NCBI GenBank assembly: GCA_964473865.1
Contig: CAYYQN010000003.1
Span: forward strand, 2,545-66,544
Source: an uncultured bacterium
GTDB taxonomy: Bacteria; Eisenbacteria; RBG-16-71-46; CAIMUX01
Length of the DNA stretch: 64,000 bases
Reading direction: 5' to 3'
Every line of letters begins with the position of its first letter. Within the stretch, counting starts at the first letter, position 1. Of this stretch, positions 34,560-61,224 are shown piece after piece. The notes below the pieces were generated by a model. It was not told the origin of the DNA and did no database searches. It saw only the letters and a program-made list of their open reading frames with translations. The position numbers were made by a program, and so were the translations under genes.

Positions 34560-35695
34560 GGGGCCTCCGAGAGCCGATCGCTCGATGTCCGTCCCGCTCG
34601 CCCCGGGCGGGGCCGGTCAGGATGGAGGGTCGACGCGAGTTCCTCCAGCACGCCGACCAGTCTCGGTCCCGGCCGCTGCAGGCGGGCCGCCCGAATCCAA
34701 CAGATCCGTCGGTCCCGCAAAGCCTCCAGCGCCGGCCAACCTGGGGTGCCCATCAACGCGCGATACGCCGCTTCCGCCTCCTTCCCCTCCGGCAGAGCGA
34801 GAAGAAGGAACCGGGGTTGATCCAGGATGATCCTTTCCAGCGACATCTGCGGCCAGCCGGGAAGAGCTCCCGCCAGATTCACGCCTCCCGCCAACCGCAC
34901 CAGGTCGTCGATGTGCGAGCCGCGGCCCGCAGTCCACGTTGGAAACTCAGGGTCGGCATAGTAGACAGTCGGTCGCTCCGCAGCCGGAATCGATGCGGAC
35001 CAGGCCTCGTACGCGGAGAGAACCTCGGCAAAAGCCGAGACGACCGCGTCGGCGCGCGCTGAGTCGTCGGGGCACGCCACGGAGCGGACCGCTTCCATCA
35101 TGGTTCCGATGCCGCGCAGTCCGGTCCGGTCCTCAAGCGCAAACACCGGCAGACCAAGCCGGCGCAGCTGCCCGAGAATCGGCCGGGGATTGCCCCGCAC
35201 GGCCAGCACAAGATCGGGTCCTTGGGCGGCGATCCTCTCGAGTGAAGGATCGACGATTCCGCCCACGATGGGCCGGCGTCGCGCCGCCGGCGGCTCGTCA
35301 CAGAACCGGGTCACCCCGGAGATCCGGCTCGAGTCGACTCCGAGTGCGAAGAGAATCTCGGTGATGCTTGGGGACAGCGACACGATGCGCTCCGGACACG
35401 GCCCGCCAGTCATCGTGTCCCCGAAGGCATCGATCATGGCAGGTCGAACTCGCGCTGGGGCAATACCCATGGACATGGCAGTCGCCTGACCTGTTTGTGC
35501 AGCATCCGGCGCGGTGGCAAGGAGGTCGCCGGGAGTGGCGGCCGGGGTGGCAGCCGCGGCGATCTGGATCGCGGCCACGGTGGCGAGCAGGCACGCGACG
35601 GTCCCGTCTGCGGGGCGGAGTGACTGCCGATCCCGTGGGGTCGCGTCCGGGAGCCGGTGAGAGGAACCGGCAGGGCCGTTTCGATGCCGGGTCAC
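34556..35695 (-). CDS. ABC transporter periplasmic substrate-binding protein (BtuF/FecB class III); start uncertain
   Basis: RIVSLSPSITEILFALG, LVLAVRGNP and YYADPEFPTW match a cluster A-2 SBP fold. The track ORF (to 35941) overlaps the upstream ATPase gene. A plausible start is the GTG overlapping the ATPase stop (GTGA at ~35693). Alternatively the start is at MSMGIAP further in. Confidence 0.6.
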   Translation of the reverse strand: MTRHRNGPAGSSHRLPDATPRDRQSLRPADGTVACLLATVAAIQIAAAATPAATPGDLLATAPDAAQTGQATAMSMGIAPARVRPAMIDAFGDTMTGGPCPERIVSLSPSITEILFALGVDSSRISGVTRFCDEPPAARRRPIVGGIVDPSLERIAAQGPDLVLAVRGNPRPILGQLRRLGLPVFALEDRTGLRGIGTMMEAVRSVACPDDSARADAVVSAFAEVLSAYEAWSASIPAAERPTVYYADPEFPTWTAGRGSHIDDLVRLAGGVNLAGALPGWPQMSLERIILDQPRFLLLALPEGKEAEAAYRALMGTPGWPALEALRDRRICWIRAARLQRPGPRLVGVLEELASTLHPDRPRPGRAGRTSSDRLSEAP

Positions 35696-36552
35696 TCCGG
35701 TGCTCCCGTGTGCTTCGTCTCGAACCGCCAGGTCACGCGTGGACGCCCCGTGTTCGGATCCACCTCCGCGCGCAGGGGTGTCCGGAACACCGGCTCCAGA
35801 TTCGCAGGAGTCAACACGGCTCCGGGCGGGCCCTCTGCGACCACCCGCCCTTGATCCATCAGGAGAAGGCGGTCGCAGAAAGCCGCCTGGAGATCGATGT
35901 GATGGTCGGCCACAACGGCCCCGACCTGGTGCTGGCGACACAACTCGCGGATCTGTTCGTAGATGTGCCGCTGGTATCCGAGGTCGAGGCTGGCCACCGG
36001 CTCATCGAGGAGGAGAACCCTGGCCTCCTGGGCGAGCGCCCGCGCGAGCAGGGCACGCTGCCACTCCCCCCCGCTCAGCGTGCCCACCGCCCGGTTGCGT
36101 AGTGCCGAAAGTCCGACGCCGATCAGGGCGCGCTCTACGACTTCCCCATCCTCCTTCCGCTCCCGCCAGGCTCGTCCTCGATGAGGATGCCTTCCAAGAG
36201 ACACCATTTCGCTAACTGTCCATTCGAAGGGGGTTTCCGCGCGCTGTGGAACCCAGGCCACCCACCTGGCCCGGTCTCGGGGAGACACCTTCTCCACTGG
36301 TTGTCCACAGATGTAGACAACCCCTCGCAGAGGTGTCGCCAACCCTGCCATGACCCGAAGGTATGTCGACTTTCCGGCGCCATTCGGGCCGAGCAGACCA
36401 ACGAGTTCTCCCGCAAGGAGTTCCAGCCGCTCTACCGACAGAAACGGCCTCCCGCCAAACCCGAAACCGATCCCCTCCGCCACGAGCAACAACTCGCCAT
36501 CGCGGGAAGAGCTCAGGCTGTAACACGTTGATTTAGATCGGGTTATGTCCAT
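35692..36552 (-). CDS. ABC transporter ATP-binding protein (FecE/BtuD-like)
   Basis: GPNGAGKST (Walker A), LSGGEWQRALLARAL (signature), LLLDEP (Walker B), H-loop. I prefer the MDITRSKST start at ~36552. The track start at 36636 would overlap the divergent DUF5658 gene. Confidence 0.8.
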   Translation of the reverse strand: MDITRSKSTCYSLSSSRDGELLLVAEGIGFGFGGRPFLSVERLELLAGELVGLLGPNGAGKSTYLRVMAGLATPLRGVVYICGQPVEKVSPRDRARWVAWVPQRAETPFEWTVSEMVSLGRHPHRGRAWRERKEDGEVVERALIGVGLSALRNRAVGTLSGGEWQRALLARALAQEARVLLLDEPVASLDLGYQRHIYEQIRELCRQHQVGAVVADHHIDLQAAFCDRLLLMDQGRVVAEGPPGAVLTPANLEPVFRTPLRAEVDPNTGRPRVTWRFETKHTGAPE

Positions 36553-36616
36553 TATTCTTGCTTCGCGGGGTGGCCCGTTGATGCCTCCCTCGTCTTCAAG
36601 TAGAATAGGAGGTGTC

Positions 36617-37084
36617 ATGCAAGCGGTCGACACCATAAGGCGCCAGGGACACGACCGCAGACGGCGTCCGACGCCGGCGCTGAGTCGCTACACCTTTCTT
36701 GGCGGCCGACGCCGAGGTCCTCGCCGAACCACCGATCCCCAAGCGGTTTACGTGGATCAACTGGGCTGGGGGCTTGTCTCGATCCTACTCCTGATCTTCG
36801 TCTTCCACGTCCTGGATGCCATGTTCACGCTGGCCCACATCGCCCGCGGGGGCACCGAGCTGAACCCGTTCATGGACTTCTTCCTCAGCCGGAGTCCCGC
36901 GACGTTCGTGGCGGCCAAACTGGGTATCGCGGGCCTGGGACTCCTCTTTCTGGCGTTTCACGGCCGGTTTCCCATGGTGCGTAAGGGAATCGCCGTGATC
37001 TTCCTGCTTTACGCCGGAGTCGTCTGCTATCACTTCGTTCTGATCTGGCGGGCCGGAGCTCCACTCTGGCCGACGATCGTCTGA
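36617..37084 (+). CDS. DUF5658-family small membrane protein with Arg-rich N-terminal tail
   Basis: GGAGG sits 5 nt before ATG (MQAVDTIRRQGHDRRRRPTPALSRYTFLGGRRRGPRRTTDP...). Then 3-4 TM helices with the conserved HVLDAMFTLAHIARGGTELNPFM motif (D..T......G..E.NP) of DUF5658. The track ORF start at 36545 is an upstream extension. Confidence 0.55.
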   Translation: MQAVDTIRRQGHDRRRRPTPALSRYTFLGGRRRGPRRTTDPQAVYVDQLGWGLVSILLLIFVFHVLDAMFTLAHIARGGTELNPFMDFFLSRSPATFVAAKLGIAGLGLLFLAFHGRFPMVRKGIAVIFLLYAGVVCYHFVLIWRAGAPLWPTIV

Positions 37085-46674: not shown

Positions 46675-49422
<2,748 letters not shown>

Positions 49423-49539: not shown

Positions 49540-51456
<1,917 letters not shown>

Positions 51457-51747
51457 TCATGGTTCCGGGTTTGGAGTGAACCGAATGCTGTCGATGGTGC
51501 TGCCCGGAGCGATCTCCCGGAGCCGCTCCAGCATCTTTGGCACCAAGAACGAGAGATGGTGCTGCAACACCGCGTCTTCCACATAGACCCATAGGGTCTT
51601 TCCCTGCATCCGGAGCGGCCGCGTGCGGGCGGCCAGCGGCTCGCCCACCACCTCGCGCCAGCGCGGGAAGGTCCGGTAGTTGGCCACGCCGCGCTCGAGG
51701 TCCCGGCCGCGCAGAACGGCCTCCAGGATCCCCGAGATGTGATTCAT
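51457..51747 (-). CDS. DUF721 (DciA-like) protein in the recF position of the origin cluster
   Basis: MNHISGILEAVLRGRDLERGVANYRTFPRWREVVGEPLAARTRPLRMQGKTLWVYVEDAVLQHHLSFLVPKMLERL fits the DUF721 pattern. It sits between dnaN and gyrB. The listed ORF (start 51888) has a non-protein-like N-extension. Confidence 0.55.
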   Translation of the reverse strand: MNHISGILEAVLRGRDLERGVANYRTFPRWREVVGEPLAARTRPLRMQGKTLWVYVEDAVLQHHLSFLVPKMLERLREIAPGSTIDSIRFTPNPEP

Positions 51748-51766
51748 CCCCGACACGAGCGGTCGC

Positions 51767-52912
51767 TCAGTGGGCAGCCGCGGTCTCACCGCTGCGGGCA
51801 GGCTCGTCCTGCAGCCGCAGCGGCATGACCAGACAGAGCAGGTCCGGCTTGCCTTCCCGAGGCGCGGGTTCGAAAATGCTGGCCGCACCGGCTTCCTTGA
51901 AGGAAATGCGCACCCGGTCCGAGATCATGGTTTTGAGCAGGTCCAGGAGATACCCTCCATTGAATCCGGTGCGGAACGCCGGTCCCTCGTAGTCGGCCGG
52001 CACTGCCTCGCTCGCCTCTCCCACGTCGTGGGCTTCCGCGGCCAGAGCCAGCCGTCCCGAATCGATCGTGACCTTGACCATGCGGGTCGCAGACTCGCTG
52101 AAGACGGTAACGCGACGCAGCGCGGCGGCGAGAACCTCGCGGTCGAGTTCCGCGTGGCTGTTACACCCACTGGGGATCGCCTGCTGATAGGGCGGGAATG
52201 GGCCGTCCAGGAGGCGCGTATAGAGCCGCGTATTGCCGAGGTTGAAAAGGCAGTACCGCTTGTTGGCGGAGAGAGACACCGATTCCTGGGCCTCCGAGAG
52301 CAGCCTCTGCAGGACGGCAAGGGTCTTCGTCGGCACCAGGACCTCGCCCCAGGAGGGATAGTCCGCGCTGTGAAATGACATCGCCAGGCGGTGTCCGTTC
52401 GTGGCGACAAAGCGGAGATCGCCTCCAACAATATGAACGTAGACGGCTGTCTGCTCCGGTCGGGTGTAGTCGGTGCTCGCGGCGTAAACCGTTTGGGCCG
52501 CCAGACGGGCCAACACAGAGCTCGAAACGGCAAAAACCTTCTCCTCGTTCAATTCCGGCAGTGGGGGAAATTCCTGGGGATCAGGGCCCACGATCCGAAA
52601 CCGTCCATTTCCGCACTGAATGCCAACGCCGCTGGCGGTGGACGAAATCTCCACGACATCCCCTGGCAGCTCTCGTACAACCTCCAGGAGTCTTCGCGCC
52701 GGGATCGCCGCGATCCCGGGTTGTTCGACCGCAGCATGCAGGGTCGTCACGAGAAAGGCGTCCAGATCCGTCCCGGTGAACCGGAGCTCTCCGGCAGCGG
52801 TGGCTTCCACCAGGATCGACGTCAGGTGTTGCGCCGCCGTCTTTGTGGGCACAACCCCTGCCACCAGCTGCAAGCTCCTGTACAGCTCACTCTGAACCAG
52901 CGAAAACTTCAT
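51767..52912 (-). CDS. dnaN: DNA polymerase III beta sliding clamp
   Basis: MKFSLVQSELYRSLQLVAGVVPTKTAAQHLTSILVEA is a typical beta-clamp N-terminus. Three-domain length of ~380 aa. GGAGG RBS. The track start at 53134 is an upstream extension. Confidence 0.85.
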   Translation of the reverse strand: MKFSLVQSELYRSLQLVAGVVPTKTAAQHLTSILVEATAAGELRFTGTDLDAFLVTTLHAAVEQPGIAAIPARRLLEVVRELPGDVVEISSTASGVGIQCGNGRFRIVGPDPQEFPPLPELNEEKVFAVSSSVLARLAAQTVYAASTDYTRPEQTAVYVHIVGGDLRFVATNGHRLAMSFHSADYPSWGEVLVPTKTLAVLQRLLSEAQESVSLSANKRYCLFNLGNTRLYTRLLDGPFPPYQQAIPSGCNSHAELDREVLAAALRRVTVFSESATRMVKVTIDSGRLALAAEAHDVGEASEAVPADYEGPAFRTGFNGGYLLDLLKTMISDRVRISFKEAGAASIFEPAPREGKPDLLCLVMPLRLQDEPARSGETAAAH

Positions 52913-53134
52913 GACCCCTCCCGGCACCACAAGGATCCGCTGAATGCGTCCCCTGTTGTGGTCCGCGACCGTCCCGACCCAGGGTTGTCCCCCTGACTCA
53001 TCTCTTCCGCGACCCGGAGGCAATGCGTCCGGGAGGCCCGGAATCCTGTCCCGGACGGCTTCTGACGCCAGCCCGTCTGAAACCCCGTGGAGCACATTCG
53101 GTGCCCGCACAGGATAGGAAAGGTTTCCCCTCAA

Positions 53135-53470
53135 GTAAAGTCGAAAGGCTCTCGACAGAGGCGATCTAATGAGCTAGCAGACCATTGGTTAGAGGGATGA
53201 GAGGAATCCTCTACGATACAAGGACAGAAGAAGAGTCGAAGTAGTAGGCGTGTGAGTTGGGTGAGTATGTGGAACCACGGACGGGAGGAGTCCAGACTCC
53301 AAGCGGTTGCGCCGGATGGGGTGTGGTGACGACCTGGGGACAAAGCGCGCCGCGATCCACAAGTCCGCTCCACATGGTCATTTCGACATGGAGTGCGGGC
53401 GAACCTGTTGACAGGTCGCTACCGGTGACCGCGACAACAGGATGAACCGAGAAGCCGGTCTTTGGAGGCG
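53135..53470. other. AT-rich dnaA-dnaN intergenic region (candidate DNA-unwinding element / second oriC module)
   Basis: It is visibly lower in G+C than the flanks (e.g. ggtttcccctcaagtaaagtcgaaagg...gagtatgtggaacc). There are weak box-like TCCACA motifs (GATCCACAAG, CTCCACATGG). Confidence 0.4.
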
Positions 53471-54853
53471 TCACTTGCCCTGTTCGAGACTCGAGGTGAG
53501 ATCCTTGCGGATTTGTTCAAGCGTTGCGGAAAAGGCGGGATCTCGGGATGCCTTGTCCGCGATTCGAGAGCAGGCGTAGAGCACGGTGCTGTGGTCCCGG
53601 TTGCCGAAGCGGCGTCCGATCTCGACAAGGGTCAACGGAGTGGACTGTTTCGTGAGATACATGGCAACCTGTCGAGCGAACGCAACGGAGCTTGTCCGAC
53701 GTCTCCCCCGAAGAGATTCCGGTGGAAGCTCAAAGTGAATCGCCACAACCTTTTGAATGTCAGTAACATCCGGGATTCGTTGTTGCTGTCCGCGAATGTA
53801 GTCGCCCAGCACCTCCCGAGCCAGATCGATGGTGATGTCACTTCCAGTGAGGGACCCGAGAGCCGAGAGCCGAACCAGGGACCCTTCCAGTTCCCGGATG
53901 TTGGAGCGAATGTTCTCAGCGATGAAGAAGAGCACGGGGTCCGGAATGGCGACCTGGGAGCGTTCGGCCTTTCTTCGAAGAATCGCAACCCGGGTTTCCA
54001 GGTCCGGCGGCTGGATGTCGGTGACAAGACCCCAGTTGAACCTGGAGATCAGCCTCTCCTCCAGATCCGGGATGTCCTTGGGAGCGCGGTCACTCGTGAC
54101 CACGACCTGCCTGTTGGCGTCGTATAGGCTGTTAAATGTATGAAAGAACTCCTCTTGCGTGGATTCCTTCCCCGACATGAATTGGATGTCATCAACCAGC
54201 AGCAGATCCAGATTCCGGTACCGCTCCCGAAACTCCAGGGTGTGTCCACGCTGAATCGACTCGATCATCTCATTCATGAACTTCTCGGAAGAGACGTAGT
54301 AGACCCGCGCCGATGGGGTACGCTGCTTCACCTCGAAGCCAATCGCCTGCATGATATGGGTTTTGCCCAGTCCTACGCCTCCATGGATGAAGAGCGGATT
54401 GTAGACTCGGGCTGGATCCTGGGCCACGGCCCGGCACGCTGCGGACGTGAATTCGTTACCCCGACCGACGACGAAGTTGTCGAACGTGAACTGGGACTTC
54501 AGGTTAGAGGCTGAGATCACCGCTGATGCGCGGGGTGATTCCGGTACGGTCGTCCGCTCCGGCCCGCGGCTGGAAGACCGCGAGAACTTGATGTCGTAGC
54601 CATCGGCTACGGAGAAGCGGATTTCCGGAGTCTGGCCGAAGTGGTCTGAGATTGTTGATCTCAAAAGCGGCAAGTTGTGCTCCTCAAACCAGTCGACAAA
54701 GAAGGGGTTCGGGACTTCGAGAAGGACGCGTTCGGCAGTCACCTCCAGAGGGCGAATGGGCCGAAACCACGTGACAAACTTCTGTTCAGAGACGGAATTT
54801 CGCAAGACTTCGAGAATCTTGGACCACGTGTCAACAGCCGCCGACTCGTGCAA
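53471..54853 (-). CDS. dnaA: chromosomal replication initiator protein
   Basis: Domain I WSKILEVLRNSVSEQKFVTWFRP. AAA+ GGVGLGKTHIMQAIG (Walker A), LLLVDDIQF (Walker B), sensor/arginine finger. C-terminal DnaA-box-binding HTH (VAMYLTKQSTPLTLVEIGRRFGNRDHSTVLYA). Confidence 0.9.
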   Translation of the reverse strand: MHESAAVDTWSKILEVLRNSVSEQKFVTWFRPIRPLEVTAERVLLEVPNPFFVDWFEEHNLPLLRSTISDHFGQTPEIRFSVADGYDIKFSRSSSRGPERTTVPESPRASAVISASNLKSQFTFDNFVVGRGNEFTSAACRAVAQDPARVYNPLFIHGGVGLGKTHIMQAIGFEVKQRTPSARVYYVSSEKFMNEMIESIQRGHTLEFRERYRNLDLLLVDDIQFMSGKESTQEEFFHTFNSLYDANRQVVVTSDRAPKDIPDLEERLISRFNWGLVTDIQPPDLETRVAILRRKAERSQVAIPDPVLFFIAENIRSNIRELEGSLVRLSALGSLTGSDITIDLAREVLGDYIRGQQQRIPDVTDIQKVVAIHFELPPESLRGRRRTSSVAFARQVAMYLTKQSTPLTLVEIGRRFGNRDHSTVLYACSRIADKASRDPAFSATLEQIRKDLTSSLEQGK

Positions 54854-54887
54854 GGTTCAGACCCCCCAAAGCGGATGCGCAACAATG

Positions 54888-55337
54888 TTGTCCACAAAAT
54901 TACCCACATTGGATCACGGGGAGTAATCGAAAGCGAACTCAGGTCCAGAGCACTGGAACGCTCTTTCCGCGTCGGAACCGCACAATGTTGTCCACCGGCA
55001 GGTGTCGGCACAACCAGGTGAGGAACAAACGGTTGCGGCGAGGCCAATGCGGTTCTCCACAGGAAAGCCCAACAACTCCCCGAAAAAACGGTGGACCGCC
55101 TCGGGGGGCCGGTACAATCTCCTGCCTCCGAGGAGAGCCGGCGACAAAGGTTATTCACAACCCCCCGCGAGATCCGAAAGCGGTGCGCATCCTAGCACGC
55201 ACCCCAGAGAGGGACAATCGGAATCTGTCGGCGGGAACATATTCCCCAATGTGAAGCGGGACAGACGATTCCGGGCCGGACCGTCCCGATTCTCGCCTCT
55301 TGGGGCGAAAACGCTTTCAGTGGCGCGCTGTGGAGAA
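54888..55337. promoter_or_regulatory. DnaA-box cluster in the dnaA-rpmH divergent intergenic region (candidate oriC / dnaA autoregulatory region)
   Basis: 9-mers close to TTATCCACA: TTGTCCACA 54888-54896, TTACCCACA 54900-54908, TTGTCCACC 54988-54996, TTCTCCACA 55053-55061, TTATTCACA 55151-55159, TGTGGAGAA 55329-55337 (reverse). The leading strand switches exactly here. Confidence 0.6.
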
Positions 55338-55483
55338 CGACGGAATCACGAACACCATAAAAAACGGGCGCAAAATGCGCAGTTGACCTCGGCCCGGGCC
55401 GTCCGGTAGCCTCGCCACGTATCCGAAGGTCTGACCAAGACGGCAGCCGCCAACTTGGTCAACGCAGGGAGATGAGGAGATCC

Positions 55484-55621
55484 ATGAAGAGGACATTCCA
55501 GCCACACAACCGGCGGAAGCTCAAGGTGCACGGATTCCGCAAGCGTATGAGCACCGCCAATGGGCGCCGGGTTCTGAAAAGCCGTCGTGCGAAGGGACGG
55601 AAGCGGCTCGTTGTTTCGTGA
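55484..55621 (+). CDS. rpmH: 50S ribosomal protein L34
   Basis: [45 protein letters not shown] (45 aa). It is not in the ORF track because it is short. GGAG RBS. A TTGACC-18-TAGCCT promoter-like element lies upstream. Confidence 0.9.
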
Positions 55622-60123: not shown

Positions 60124-60308
60124 TCTGTCGTCAAATATCAAGATAAGCATAAAGTTCCTGGCCTCTTGCGTTGGAGTCCGGACGGCGCATCGGTCGCCTG
60201 ACGGACGTGCGCCGGATTGCGACGATTCTGGGTTGCGAGATCCTCTCCAAAGTAGATAGAAACACAGTAACTTGTTTTTTATAAATAAGATGAACCGAAT
60301 TCCATCTG

Positions 60309-60324
60309 ATGTTCCACGTGGAAC
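60309..60324. promoter_or_regulatory. parS-like palindrome upstream of parA
   Basis: TGTTCCACGTGGAACT versus canonical TGTTTCACGTGAAACA. The core GTTCCACGTGGAAC is a perfect 14-bp palindrome. It lies in an AT-rich island next to a TTGACC-18-TAGTTT promoter-like element (60330-60359). Confidence 0.6.
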
Positions 60325-60470
60325 TTTCGGGTTGACCTGCGCCGCGCGCCGGTGCTAGTTTGCCGCGGGATCGGAAAGAGTCGCTGAACGGCGCCGGCCA
60401 GCGACTCTCCTTCGTGGGCTGTCGGCACACGCGCGGAAGACCGCGAATCTTGGAGGAATCGGGGCGCACG

Positions 60471-61224
<754 letters not shown>

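Follow-up and report, generated by a model that had tools for sequence, protein, structure and literature searches.

The DNA studied here is a 64,000-nucleotide stretch (hereafter the window; base composition 65.7% GC) from an uncultured Eisenbacteria-like bacterium, in which dnaA is flanked by rpmH on one side and by dnaN on the other. This locus is very probably the chromosome replication origin (oriC) of the organism, and the origin is probably an ordinary dnaA-linked oriC of the bipartite type. Judging from the sequence, it is fairly likely that oriC straddles dnaA, with a strong array of DnaA boxes upstream of the gene and with unwinding predicted to occur at a run of DnaA-trios downstream of it, towards dnaN. 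An initial annotation had likewise proposed an oriC straddling dnaA, with its DUE, or duplex-unwinding element, placed within the dnaA-dnaN spacer. That placement could be retained on the strength of the box array, a conserved module resembling the basal unwinding system (BUS), the low stability of the DNA and the GC skew, but the grounds originally given for the DUE, AT-richness and TCCACA motifs, did not stand. The coordinates of all features are collected in Table 1.

A large protein collection gave graded relatives of the window DnaA, and DNA was recovered for six lineages with 64-80% DnaA identity (L083, L085, L086, L087, L088 and L090). These six and the window are referred to below as the seven lineages. 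L086 is the closest relative with DNA, and L090 is a metagenome-assembled genome named Candidatus Eisenbacteria bacterium (GCA_041390305.1). Named homologues and L090 are the basis of the Eisenbacteria-like label. No close relative was found among species-representative genomes, where the best DnaA match was 48% identical. A further 80 unrelated loci (at most 48% identity), too distant for footprinting, were used as a cross-phylum control set. The rpmH-dnaA spacer was aligned from six sequences (alignment A1) and the dnaA-dnaN spacer from five (alignment A2). The length of the rpmH-dnaA spacer is conserved, 630 bp in the window and 627-790 bp in the relatives, and the dnaA-dnaN spacer is 558 bp long in the window and 462-604 bp in the relatives, but 1220 bp in L086. 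Two independent Logan contigs from one sequencing run were 100% identical to the window over both spacer regions, and an assembly oddity was therefore excluded.

DnaA boxes were scored against TTATCCACA, and expected counts for the spacers were obtained from dinucleotide shuffles. The rpmH-dnaA spacer contained five boxes with at most one mismatch, compared to 0.05 expected, and none of 2000 shuffles reached five. A dense box cluster, as looked for at an oriC, was thus present at a density far above that of shuffled sequence. The enrichment was approximately 100-fold, and the Poisson probability of five boxes at the rate seen in the rest of the window was 4e-8. This spacer is the densest 630-bp stretch for boxes in the 64 kb, no other having as many; the whole window holds 14 boxes with at most one mismatch, compared to 3.1 expected. 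The initial annotation had listed at least six box-like 9-mers here, and six were recovered, five with at most one mismatch and one with two (U1 to U6 in Table 1). The tandem pair TTGTCCACAaaaTTACCCACA, formed by U1 and U2, was found exactly as quoted and its position is held in the seven lineages. The lineage consensus TT(A/G)TCCACA was borne out by the relatives.

In all six relatives a tandem pair of the form TGTGGATAA-nnn-TGTGGACAA lies 41-59 bp before the dnaA start. The box corresponding to U1 is found 41-44 bp before dnaA, except in L083 (47 bp), and the partner corresponding to U2, which reads TTATCCACA, TTATCAACA or TTATCTACA, holds a fixed position. Further boxes recur near -200 and -307, including a counterpart of U4 at about -196 to -208 in L083 and L086. 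The region of U5 falls in an aligned block, TGTTnATAAC, which is kept in five of the six A1 sequences. All but one of the boxes with at most one mismatch in the relatives fall in the rpmH-dnaA spacer.

The most conserved block of A1, GTTGTCC...CGTGCTAGGAT, is located at a putative dnaA promoter. DnaA boxes are carried as autoregulatory operators by the dnaA promoters of E. coli and B. subtilis, and the window resembles these in that U1 to U5 all sit between the conserved promoter-like site and the dnaA start codon. The layout looks like the geometry of a putative autoregulatory operator, in which DnaA would act as an autorepressing roadblock, and the upstream boxes, situated in the apparent dnaA leader, may serve mainly or additionally for dnaA autoregulation. 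Unlike in a dnaA operator, the six boxes spread over 450 bp exceed the needs of a simple operator. Putative promoters were also assigned, by conservation, to rpmH and dnaN. No promoters were found in 52.8-55.6 kb by a strict sigma-70 consensus scan, in which all three putative sites fell below the threshold.

Downstream of dnaA, the spacers of the seven lineages are only about 51% identical outside one sharply conserved, ungapped block. Two 9-bp elements that abut each other and share a (T/C)TCCAC core form its first part, and a 3-bp spacer and CTA repeats follow. In the window it reads ATACTCACC CAACTCACA CGC CTA CTA CTT CGA CTC TTC TTC on the dnaA strand (53268 down to 53227). The box pair aligns without gaps with the pairs of the relatives, for example TTCTCCACG/CTCTCCACG and AACTCCACG/GTCTCCACA, and the variant ACTCACA is common to the window and L086. 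The middle base is conserved in six of the seven window triplets and, at each of six positions, is kept in five to seven of the seven lineages. The trios of the relatives are (CTA)5 in L085, L087 and L088, (CTA)3 in L086 and CTA CTA CGA CTA CTG in L090. A position weight matrix (PWM) constructed from five relatives only gave 53230-53268 as the top match of the window, with a score of 19.1 compared to 8.0 for the next of the 127,924 positions. Leave-one-out matrices ranked the site first in all seven loci. The register of 9+9+3 is shared with 17 loci of other phyla. All 22 arrays of (CTA)>=3 in the cross-phylum comparison (770 kb from 88 loci) are on the dnaA strand and 21 of the 22 are found 100-300 bp after dnaA, each with tandem boxes and then a GC-rich spacer ahead of it in this same register.

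The BUS of B. subtilis has been described by Richardson et al. 2016/2019 and Pelliciari et al. 2021. In that system DnaA docks on two boxes, grows from them as an ATP-dependent filament along the 3'-GAT-5' repeats of one strand and opens the duplex (PMC6669920, PMC8287927). BUS elements have been predicted in 85% of 2070 origins and are essential in H. pylori (PMC8287927). The published rule asks for at least three consecutive trios (3'-NAN-5'), a box with at most two mismatches within 0-16 bp of them and a second box with at most four mismatches. The required run of trios was found in the window (CTA CTA CTT), and tandem boxes, a short spacer and trios follow in this order, with the trios on the side of the 3' end of 5'-TTATCCACA-3'. 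The window DnaA could be aligned over its whole length with that of B. subtilis (8BTG), and I190 and K222, the essential single-stranded DNA-binding residues for trio engagement in B. subtilis (PMC6669920), are retained as I197 and K229. The boxes at the homologous sites of L083 (TTCTCCACG) and L085 (GTCTCCACA) conform to the published rule. Because those of the window do not, its element was designated BUS-like and not a formal member: on the alignments it is a predicted positional homologue of a bona fide BUS, more degenerate than the norm.

The published BUS rule, which is permissive, was re-implemented and was discarded as a discriminator here: of the 80 boxes in the window it gave five matches, at chance level, and the conserved site was not among them. 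One of these matches, formed by CGATCCACA at 53353 (+) followed by ATG GTC ATT, was not conserved and was treated as chance. Further conserved blocks are present between the trios and the putative dnaN promoter (53140-53215, minus strand; also in L083, L085, L087, L088 and L090). These are (G)TAGA(G/A) at +30 to +40, a palindrome-like CTAAC-n2-4-GTTG at +55 to +85, which is the perfect CTAACTCGTTAG in L083, and GCCTTTC. A regulator or an origin factor may bind at these blocks. The possibility that the (G)TAGA motif marks a second, inverted BUS was rejected, as no inverted boxes follow. A terminator-like hairpin at 53140-53156 was also rejected, since it appeared not to be conserved on inspection of the aligned relatives, and an Rfam scan of 51.5-64 kb gave nothing credible.

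The dnaA-dnaN spacer was delimited as 52913-53470 because both the start of the beta-clamp region and an independent gene call place the DnaN start at 52912. The start codon is the ATG at this position (MKFSL...), the Pfam beta-clamp domain begins at residue 75 of the long open reading frame (ORF), and the gene call on a Logan contig gave the same 381-aa DnaN. The bounds proposed in the initial annotation, 53135-53470, had to be corrected, as 53135 is the end of the ORF over-extension. The interval 53135-53470 had further been described as the most AT-rich stretch of the window. It has 56.8% GC, and four other windows of that width are AT-richer. In the rsmG-parA spacer, 60244-60300 is both richer in AT (26% GC over 50 bp) and less stable than any other DNA of the window. 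Only the sub-stretch 53133-53266 ranks high among 100-bp windows, in fourth place by GC and in third place by nearest-neighbour stability. Just two 100-mers of the 64 kb are less stable than 53167-53266, so an unstable element of the kind looked for at an oriC was found here. The trio region was within the least stable 1% of 60-mers in all six loci scored and was the single least stable in three, evidence which is partly circular as the CTA repeats themselves melt easily.

The weaker TCCACA-like motifs of the dnaA-dnaN spacer do exist (CGATCCACA, CGCTCCACA, TTGTCCCCA and GGTTCCACA), but they are not commoner than chance. The spacer contained no box with at most one mismatch, and two with at most two mismatches compared to 0.83 expected from shuffles. 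A box with at most one mismatch was likewise missing from the dnaA-dnaN spacer of all six relatives. On the two sides of dnaA, the upstream box cluster is strong, and downstream only degenerate boxes are present, which are conserved in position and not enriched over chance.

The GC skew changes sign at this locus, and the cumulative minimum of the window was found at 53086, inside the dnaA-dnaN spacer. The minimum was located in the same spacer in L083, L087 and L088 and not in L085 (three of four relatives tested), and from 53 kb onwards the skew goes on rising up to 64 kb. Transcription alone does not account for the sign change. On the left arm, four of six sampled plus-strand genes have negative plus-strand skew, and dnaA, although on the minus strand, shows positive skew as on the right arm (+0.054 overall and +0.096 at third codon positions); dnaA is one gene, the sample is small and homologous genes are not independent observations. 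Because dnaA carries right-arm skew, the switch was placed downstream of dnaA rather than ahead of it.

The origin indicator genes dnaA, dnaN, rpmH, rsmG (gidB) and parAB, as used in Ori-Finder/DoriC-type predictions, adjoin the site, and parS sites at 60310 and 61749 are further origin-proximal markers. The strand switch at dnaA/rpmH noted in the initial annotation is real, but its all-minus left side holds only to about 42171, beyond which the strands are mixed according to Pfam and a gene map based on GC at third codon positions. On the other side, rpmH and the later genes all point away from dnaA, to at least 66.6 kb. The plus-strand genes after rpmH are rnpA, yidD, yidC, jag, rsmG, parA, parB, a 139-aa ORF of no assigned family and a bactofilin gene (Pfam).

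Several observations weigh against an oriC that straddles dnaA and unwinds at the trios. The BUS box rule fails in the window, as ATACTCACC and CAACTCACA have four mismatches each and GGTTCCACA, with three, is 20 bp from the trios. An nhmmer BUS profile constructed from Firmicutes and other phyla gave the window site only a non-significant E = 5.7; with the same profile, the sites of the relatives had E values of about 0.01-0.03. CGA interrupts the trio array, in which only two triplets are perfect CTA. The "AT-rich" region still has about 46% GC, and the stretch 60244-60300 is less stable. Finally, the skew covers 64 kb of a 171-kb contig and is partly confounded by gene orientation.

The locus was compared to known origins. 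In B. subtilis oriC, the box clusters incA and incB precede dnaA, and incC, with DnaA-boxes 6 and 7, trios and an AT-rich element, is located between dnaA and dnaN. The window resembles it in the gene order rpmH, dnaA-dnaN, in the strong array upstream of dnaA overlapping the promoter region, in the succession of 9-bp box, 9-bp box, 3 bp and CTA-type trios on the dnaA strand towards dnaN, then easily melted DNA, and in the conservation of DnaA residues I190 and K222. It differs in that the proximal boxes are degenerate (four mismatches each; two to five in the relatives), whereas box 6 of B. subtilis matches the consensus perfectly, and in the interrupted trio array. There is also no true AT-rich 27-mer, the region having about 46% GC in a 66% GC genome, and the spacer is approximately three times longer and holds extra conserved blocks. 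Furthermore, DciA is encoded next to dnaN here, whereas helicase loading in B. subtilis is performed by the DnaD/DnaB/DnaI system. The origins of actinobacteria (Mycobacterium, Streptomyces) have many DnaA boxes packed into a long dnaA-dnaN spacer. The window is similar to these in its high GC, a dnaA-dnaN spacer of about 0.5 kb and a modestly AT-rich unwinding region, but its strong boxes are upstream of dnaA and the spacer is without a box of at most one mismatch. The H. pylori oriC, as cited in PMC6669920 from Donczew et al. 2012, is composed of oriC1 and oriC2 separated by dnaA. Two sub-regions split by dnaA, with unwinding assigned to the downstream one (here by prediction), are common to both. 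In contrast to H. pylori, the downstream sub-region of the window is without consensus-grade boxes, the base composition and gene neighbourhood differ, and the arrangement is known here from sequence alone.

By analogy with the B. subtilis BUS, ATP-DnaA would dock on the two weak boxes at 53251-53268, and a DnaA filament would grow from there onto the trio strand (53227-53247), stretching and opening the duplex towards approximately 53133. The helicase would then be loaded, assisted by DciA, at the opened DNA near 53133. By the same kind of analogy, the upstream array would most likely have two roles, one as an operator for dnaA autorepression and the other as a high-affinity DnaA reservoir or second origin half, feeding the weak boxes 1.6 kb away.

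The position of U1 to U5 between TTGTCC-N17-TAGGAT and the dnaA start, a roadblock geometry, would also suit an array that is an autoregulatory operator only, with a monopartite origin located wholly in the dnaA-dnaN spacer as in actinobacteria. The skew minimum falls downstream of dnaA, as does the predicted unwinding module, which is conserved, and unwinding of the B. subtilis origin in vitro needs the downstream half only (PMC6669920). Such an origin was nevertheless found rather unlikely. It would have no high-affinity DnaA anchor, because the spacer is without a box of at most one mismatch in the window and the six relatives, and in B. subtilis and in H. pylori neither half is dispensable in vivo (PMC6669920). 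The reverse assignment, in which the rpmH-dnaA spacer unwinds beside the strong boxes in the manner of Pseudomonas and the downstream CTA repeat does something else, e.g. in dnaN regulation, would explain why all high-affinity boxes are there. Low-stability 60-mers do occur in this spacer of several relatives (e.g. L087 7572, L088 9697) and A1 has an AT-rich block between two boxes, but the window's own low-stability block is weak. No trio array is found beside these boxes in the window and none is conserved in A1, the PWM and the BUS profile gave no match in the rpmH-dnaA spacer, and the skew minimum is beyond dnaA. As the downstream box-box-trio module also keeps its register and orientation across phyla, upstream unwinding was regarded as very improbable.

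An origin located elsewhere, with the dnaA-flanking boxes only regulating dnaA, was given the slightest probability. The view is limited to 64 kb of the replicon, and within it 60244-60300 is the least stable DNA and 63131-63194 has three boxes, one of them a perfect TTATCCACA, next to TGATATATATAGG. However, no DnaA boxes are found near 60244-60300, which sits just upstream of parS and a parA promoter-like site, and the cluster at 63.1 kb is without trios and has no homologous cluster detected in the relatives. A site at either place, or outside the window, also fits poorly with a skew that rises continuously from 53 kb to 64 kb and with genes co-oriented away from dnaA from rpmH to at least 66.6 kb.

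Concerning the origin straddling dnaA itself, it is doubtful, and indeed quite improbable, that the unwinding module of this lineage has lost recognisable DnaA boxes, both proximal elements being ACTCAC(A/C), a form common to L086. If it had, DnaA would reach the trios by delivery from the array 1.6 kb away, which would make this an obligately looped and truly bipartite origin, or alternatively by recognition of a second, non-canonical class of motif. The blocks (G)TAGA(G/A) and CTAAC-n2-4-GTTG would then bind an unknown origin factor in a DciA-type organism.

A well-supported origin annotation for an uncultured, Eisenbacteria-like lineage of a candidate phylum can be put to use in analyses of strand bias and in estimating growth rates from metagenomic coverage (peak-to-trough ratio). 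No paper on replication origins in Eisenbacteria was found in a literature search. The box-box-trio unwinding module is extended to another deep branch, a modest widening of the phylogenetic range of the BUS. The ancestral rpmH/dnaA-dnaN layout, upstream box arrays, DnaA-trios and bipartite origins are already established, and the current model of the origin is confirmed and not challenged.

Table 1. Genes and sequence elements at the dnaA locus (window coordinates; mismatches relative to TTATCCACA).
Feature	Position	Strand	Remarks
gyrA	46675-49422	minus	Pfam
gyrB	49540-51450	minus	Pfam
DciA-family gene (dciA, PF05258)	within 51457-52912	minus	Directly after dnaN; Pfam
dnaN, 381 aa	51767-52912	minus	Pfam beta-clamp domains; exact product on independent Logan contig
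dnaA-dnaN spacer, 558 bp	52913-53470		dnaN start at 52912
Putative dnaN promoter (TTTACT, 17 nt, TATCCT)	53111-53139	minus	Blocks TTTACTTG and CCTATnCTG conserved in A2 and L090
Low-stability DNA, candidate duplex-unwinding region	53133-53266		About 46-50% GC; from trios towards dnaN
DnaA-trio array, seven triplets	53227-53247	minus	3'-GAT-5' type on complement
Spacer CGC between box 2 and trios	53248-53250	minus	3 bp in seven lineages
Two abutting degenerate 9-bp box-like elements, ATACTCACC and CAACTCACA	53251-53268	minus	4 mismatches each; positional homologues of BUS box pair
Third box-like element GGTTCCACA	53268-53276	minus	3 mismatches; abuts pair upstream
Weak box-like motif TTGTCCCCA	53335-53343	minus	In partly conserved group 53335-53414, upstream of module
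Weak box-like motif CGATCCACA	53353-53361	plus	
Weak box-like motif CGCTCCACA	53367-53375	plus	
Weak box-like motif CTGTCAACA	53406-53414	minus	TTGCCAACG-type motif there in 4/5 A2 sequences
dnaA, 460 aa	53471-54853	minus	TTG start; Pfam DnaA_N, Bac_DnaA, Bac_DnaA_C; P0001 100% identical
rpmH-dnaA spacer, 630 bp	54854-55483		DnaA-box array and divergent promoter-like sites; gene calls, box enrichment
DnaA box U1 TTGTCCACA	54888-54896	plus	1 mismatch; 43 bp before dnaA start; tandem pair member 1
DnaA box U2 TTACCCACA	54900-54908	plus	1 mismatch; 3 bp from U1; 55 bp before dnaA
DnaA box U3 TTGTCCACC	54988-54996	plus	2 mismatches; aligns with TGTGGACAA-type boxes of relatives (A1)
DnaA box U4 TTCTCCACA	55053-55061	plus	1 mismatch; about 208 bp before dnaA
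DnaA box U5 TTATTCACA	55151-55159	plus	1 mismatch; just downstream of putative dnaA promoter
Putative dnaA promoter (TTGTCC, 17 nt, TGC-TAGGAT)	55189-55217	minus	Conservation only
DnaA box U6 TTCTCCACA	55329-55337	minus	1 mismatch; sole box in opposite orientation; not conserved in A1
Putative rpmH promoter (TTGACC, 18 nt, TAGCCT)	55383-55412	plus	GGTCAAC conserved in most A1 sequences
rpmH	55484-55621	plus	Pfam

No recF was found between dnaN and gyrB (region 51457-52912), and here as in all relatives examined a DciA gene (PF05258) is located in its place. Because the DciA gene, and not recF, sits after dnaN, the lineage appears to use the ancestral DciA helicase-loading route. The dnaA gene has 57% GC, clearly below the 65.7% of the window. 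In the 1220-bp dnaA-dnaN spacer of L086 (L086:3384-4603), a segment of about 24 bp (ggctccgcgcctcgtgggaagctc) is duplicated, and an ORF of 232 aa, without Pfam match, was called that overlaps the trios. These features probably reflect an insertion together with a spurious gene call.

In the rsmG-parA spacer (60124-60470), AT-rich DNA is followed by a parS-like palindrome, TGTTCCACGTGGAACT (60310-60325), beside which a promoter-like TTGACC...TGCTAGTTT was observed; parA itself begins at the ATG at 60471. The rsmG-parA spacer of L083 and L088 also has patches of low stability. The region 60244-60325 is probably no DUE but belongs to the parAB promoter, as its UP-element or parS region. A perfect parS, TGTTCCACGTGAAACA, was found at 61749-61764 inside the parB coding sequence, as in many bacteria, and marks the origin-proximal domain.

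A second box cluster is located at 63131-63223, in the 63037-63501 spacer upstream of a gene of the FGE-sulfatase family. It consists of three boxes in the same orientation, TCGTCCACA, then after 3 bp a perfect TTATCCACA and after 43 bp more TTGTCCACA, followed by TGATATATATAGG. No trios were found in 63131-63223 and no homologous cluster was detected in the relatives; the cluster may serve to titrate DnaA or as a putative promoter under DnaA control. At 36301-36320, in the minus-strand ORF 35692-36636, two DnaA boxes form a palindromic pair, TTGTCCACAgaTGTAGACAA, and a low-stability stretch, 36513-36562, is located approximately 200 bp past this pair.

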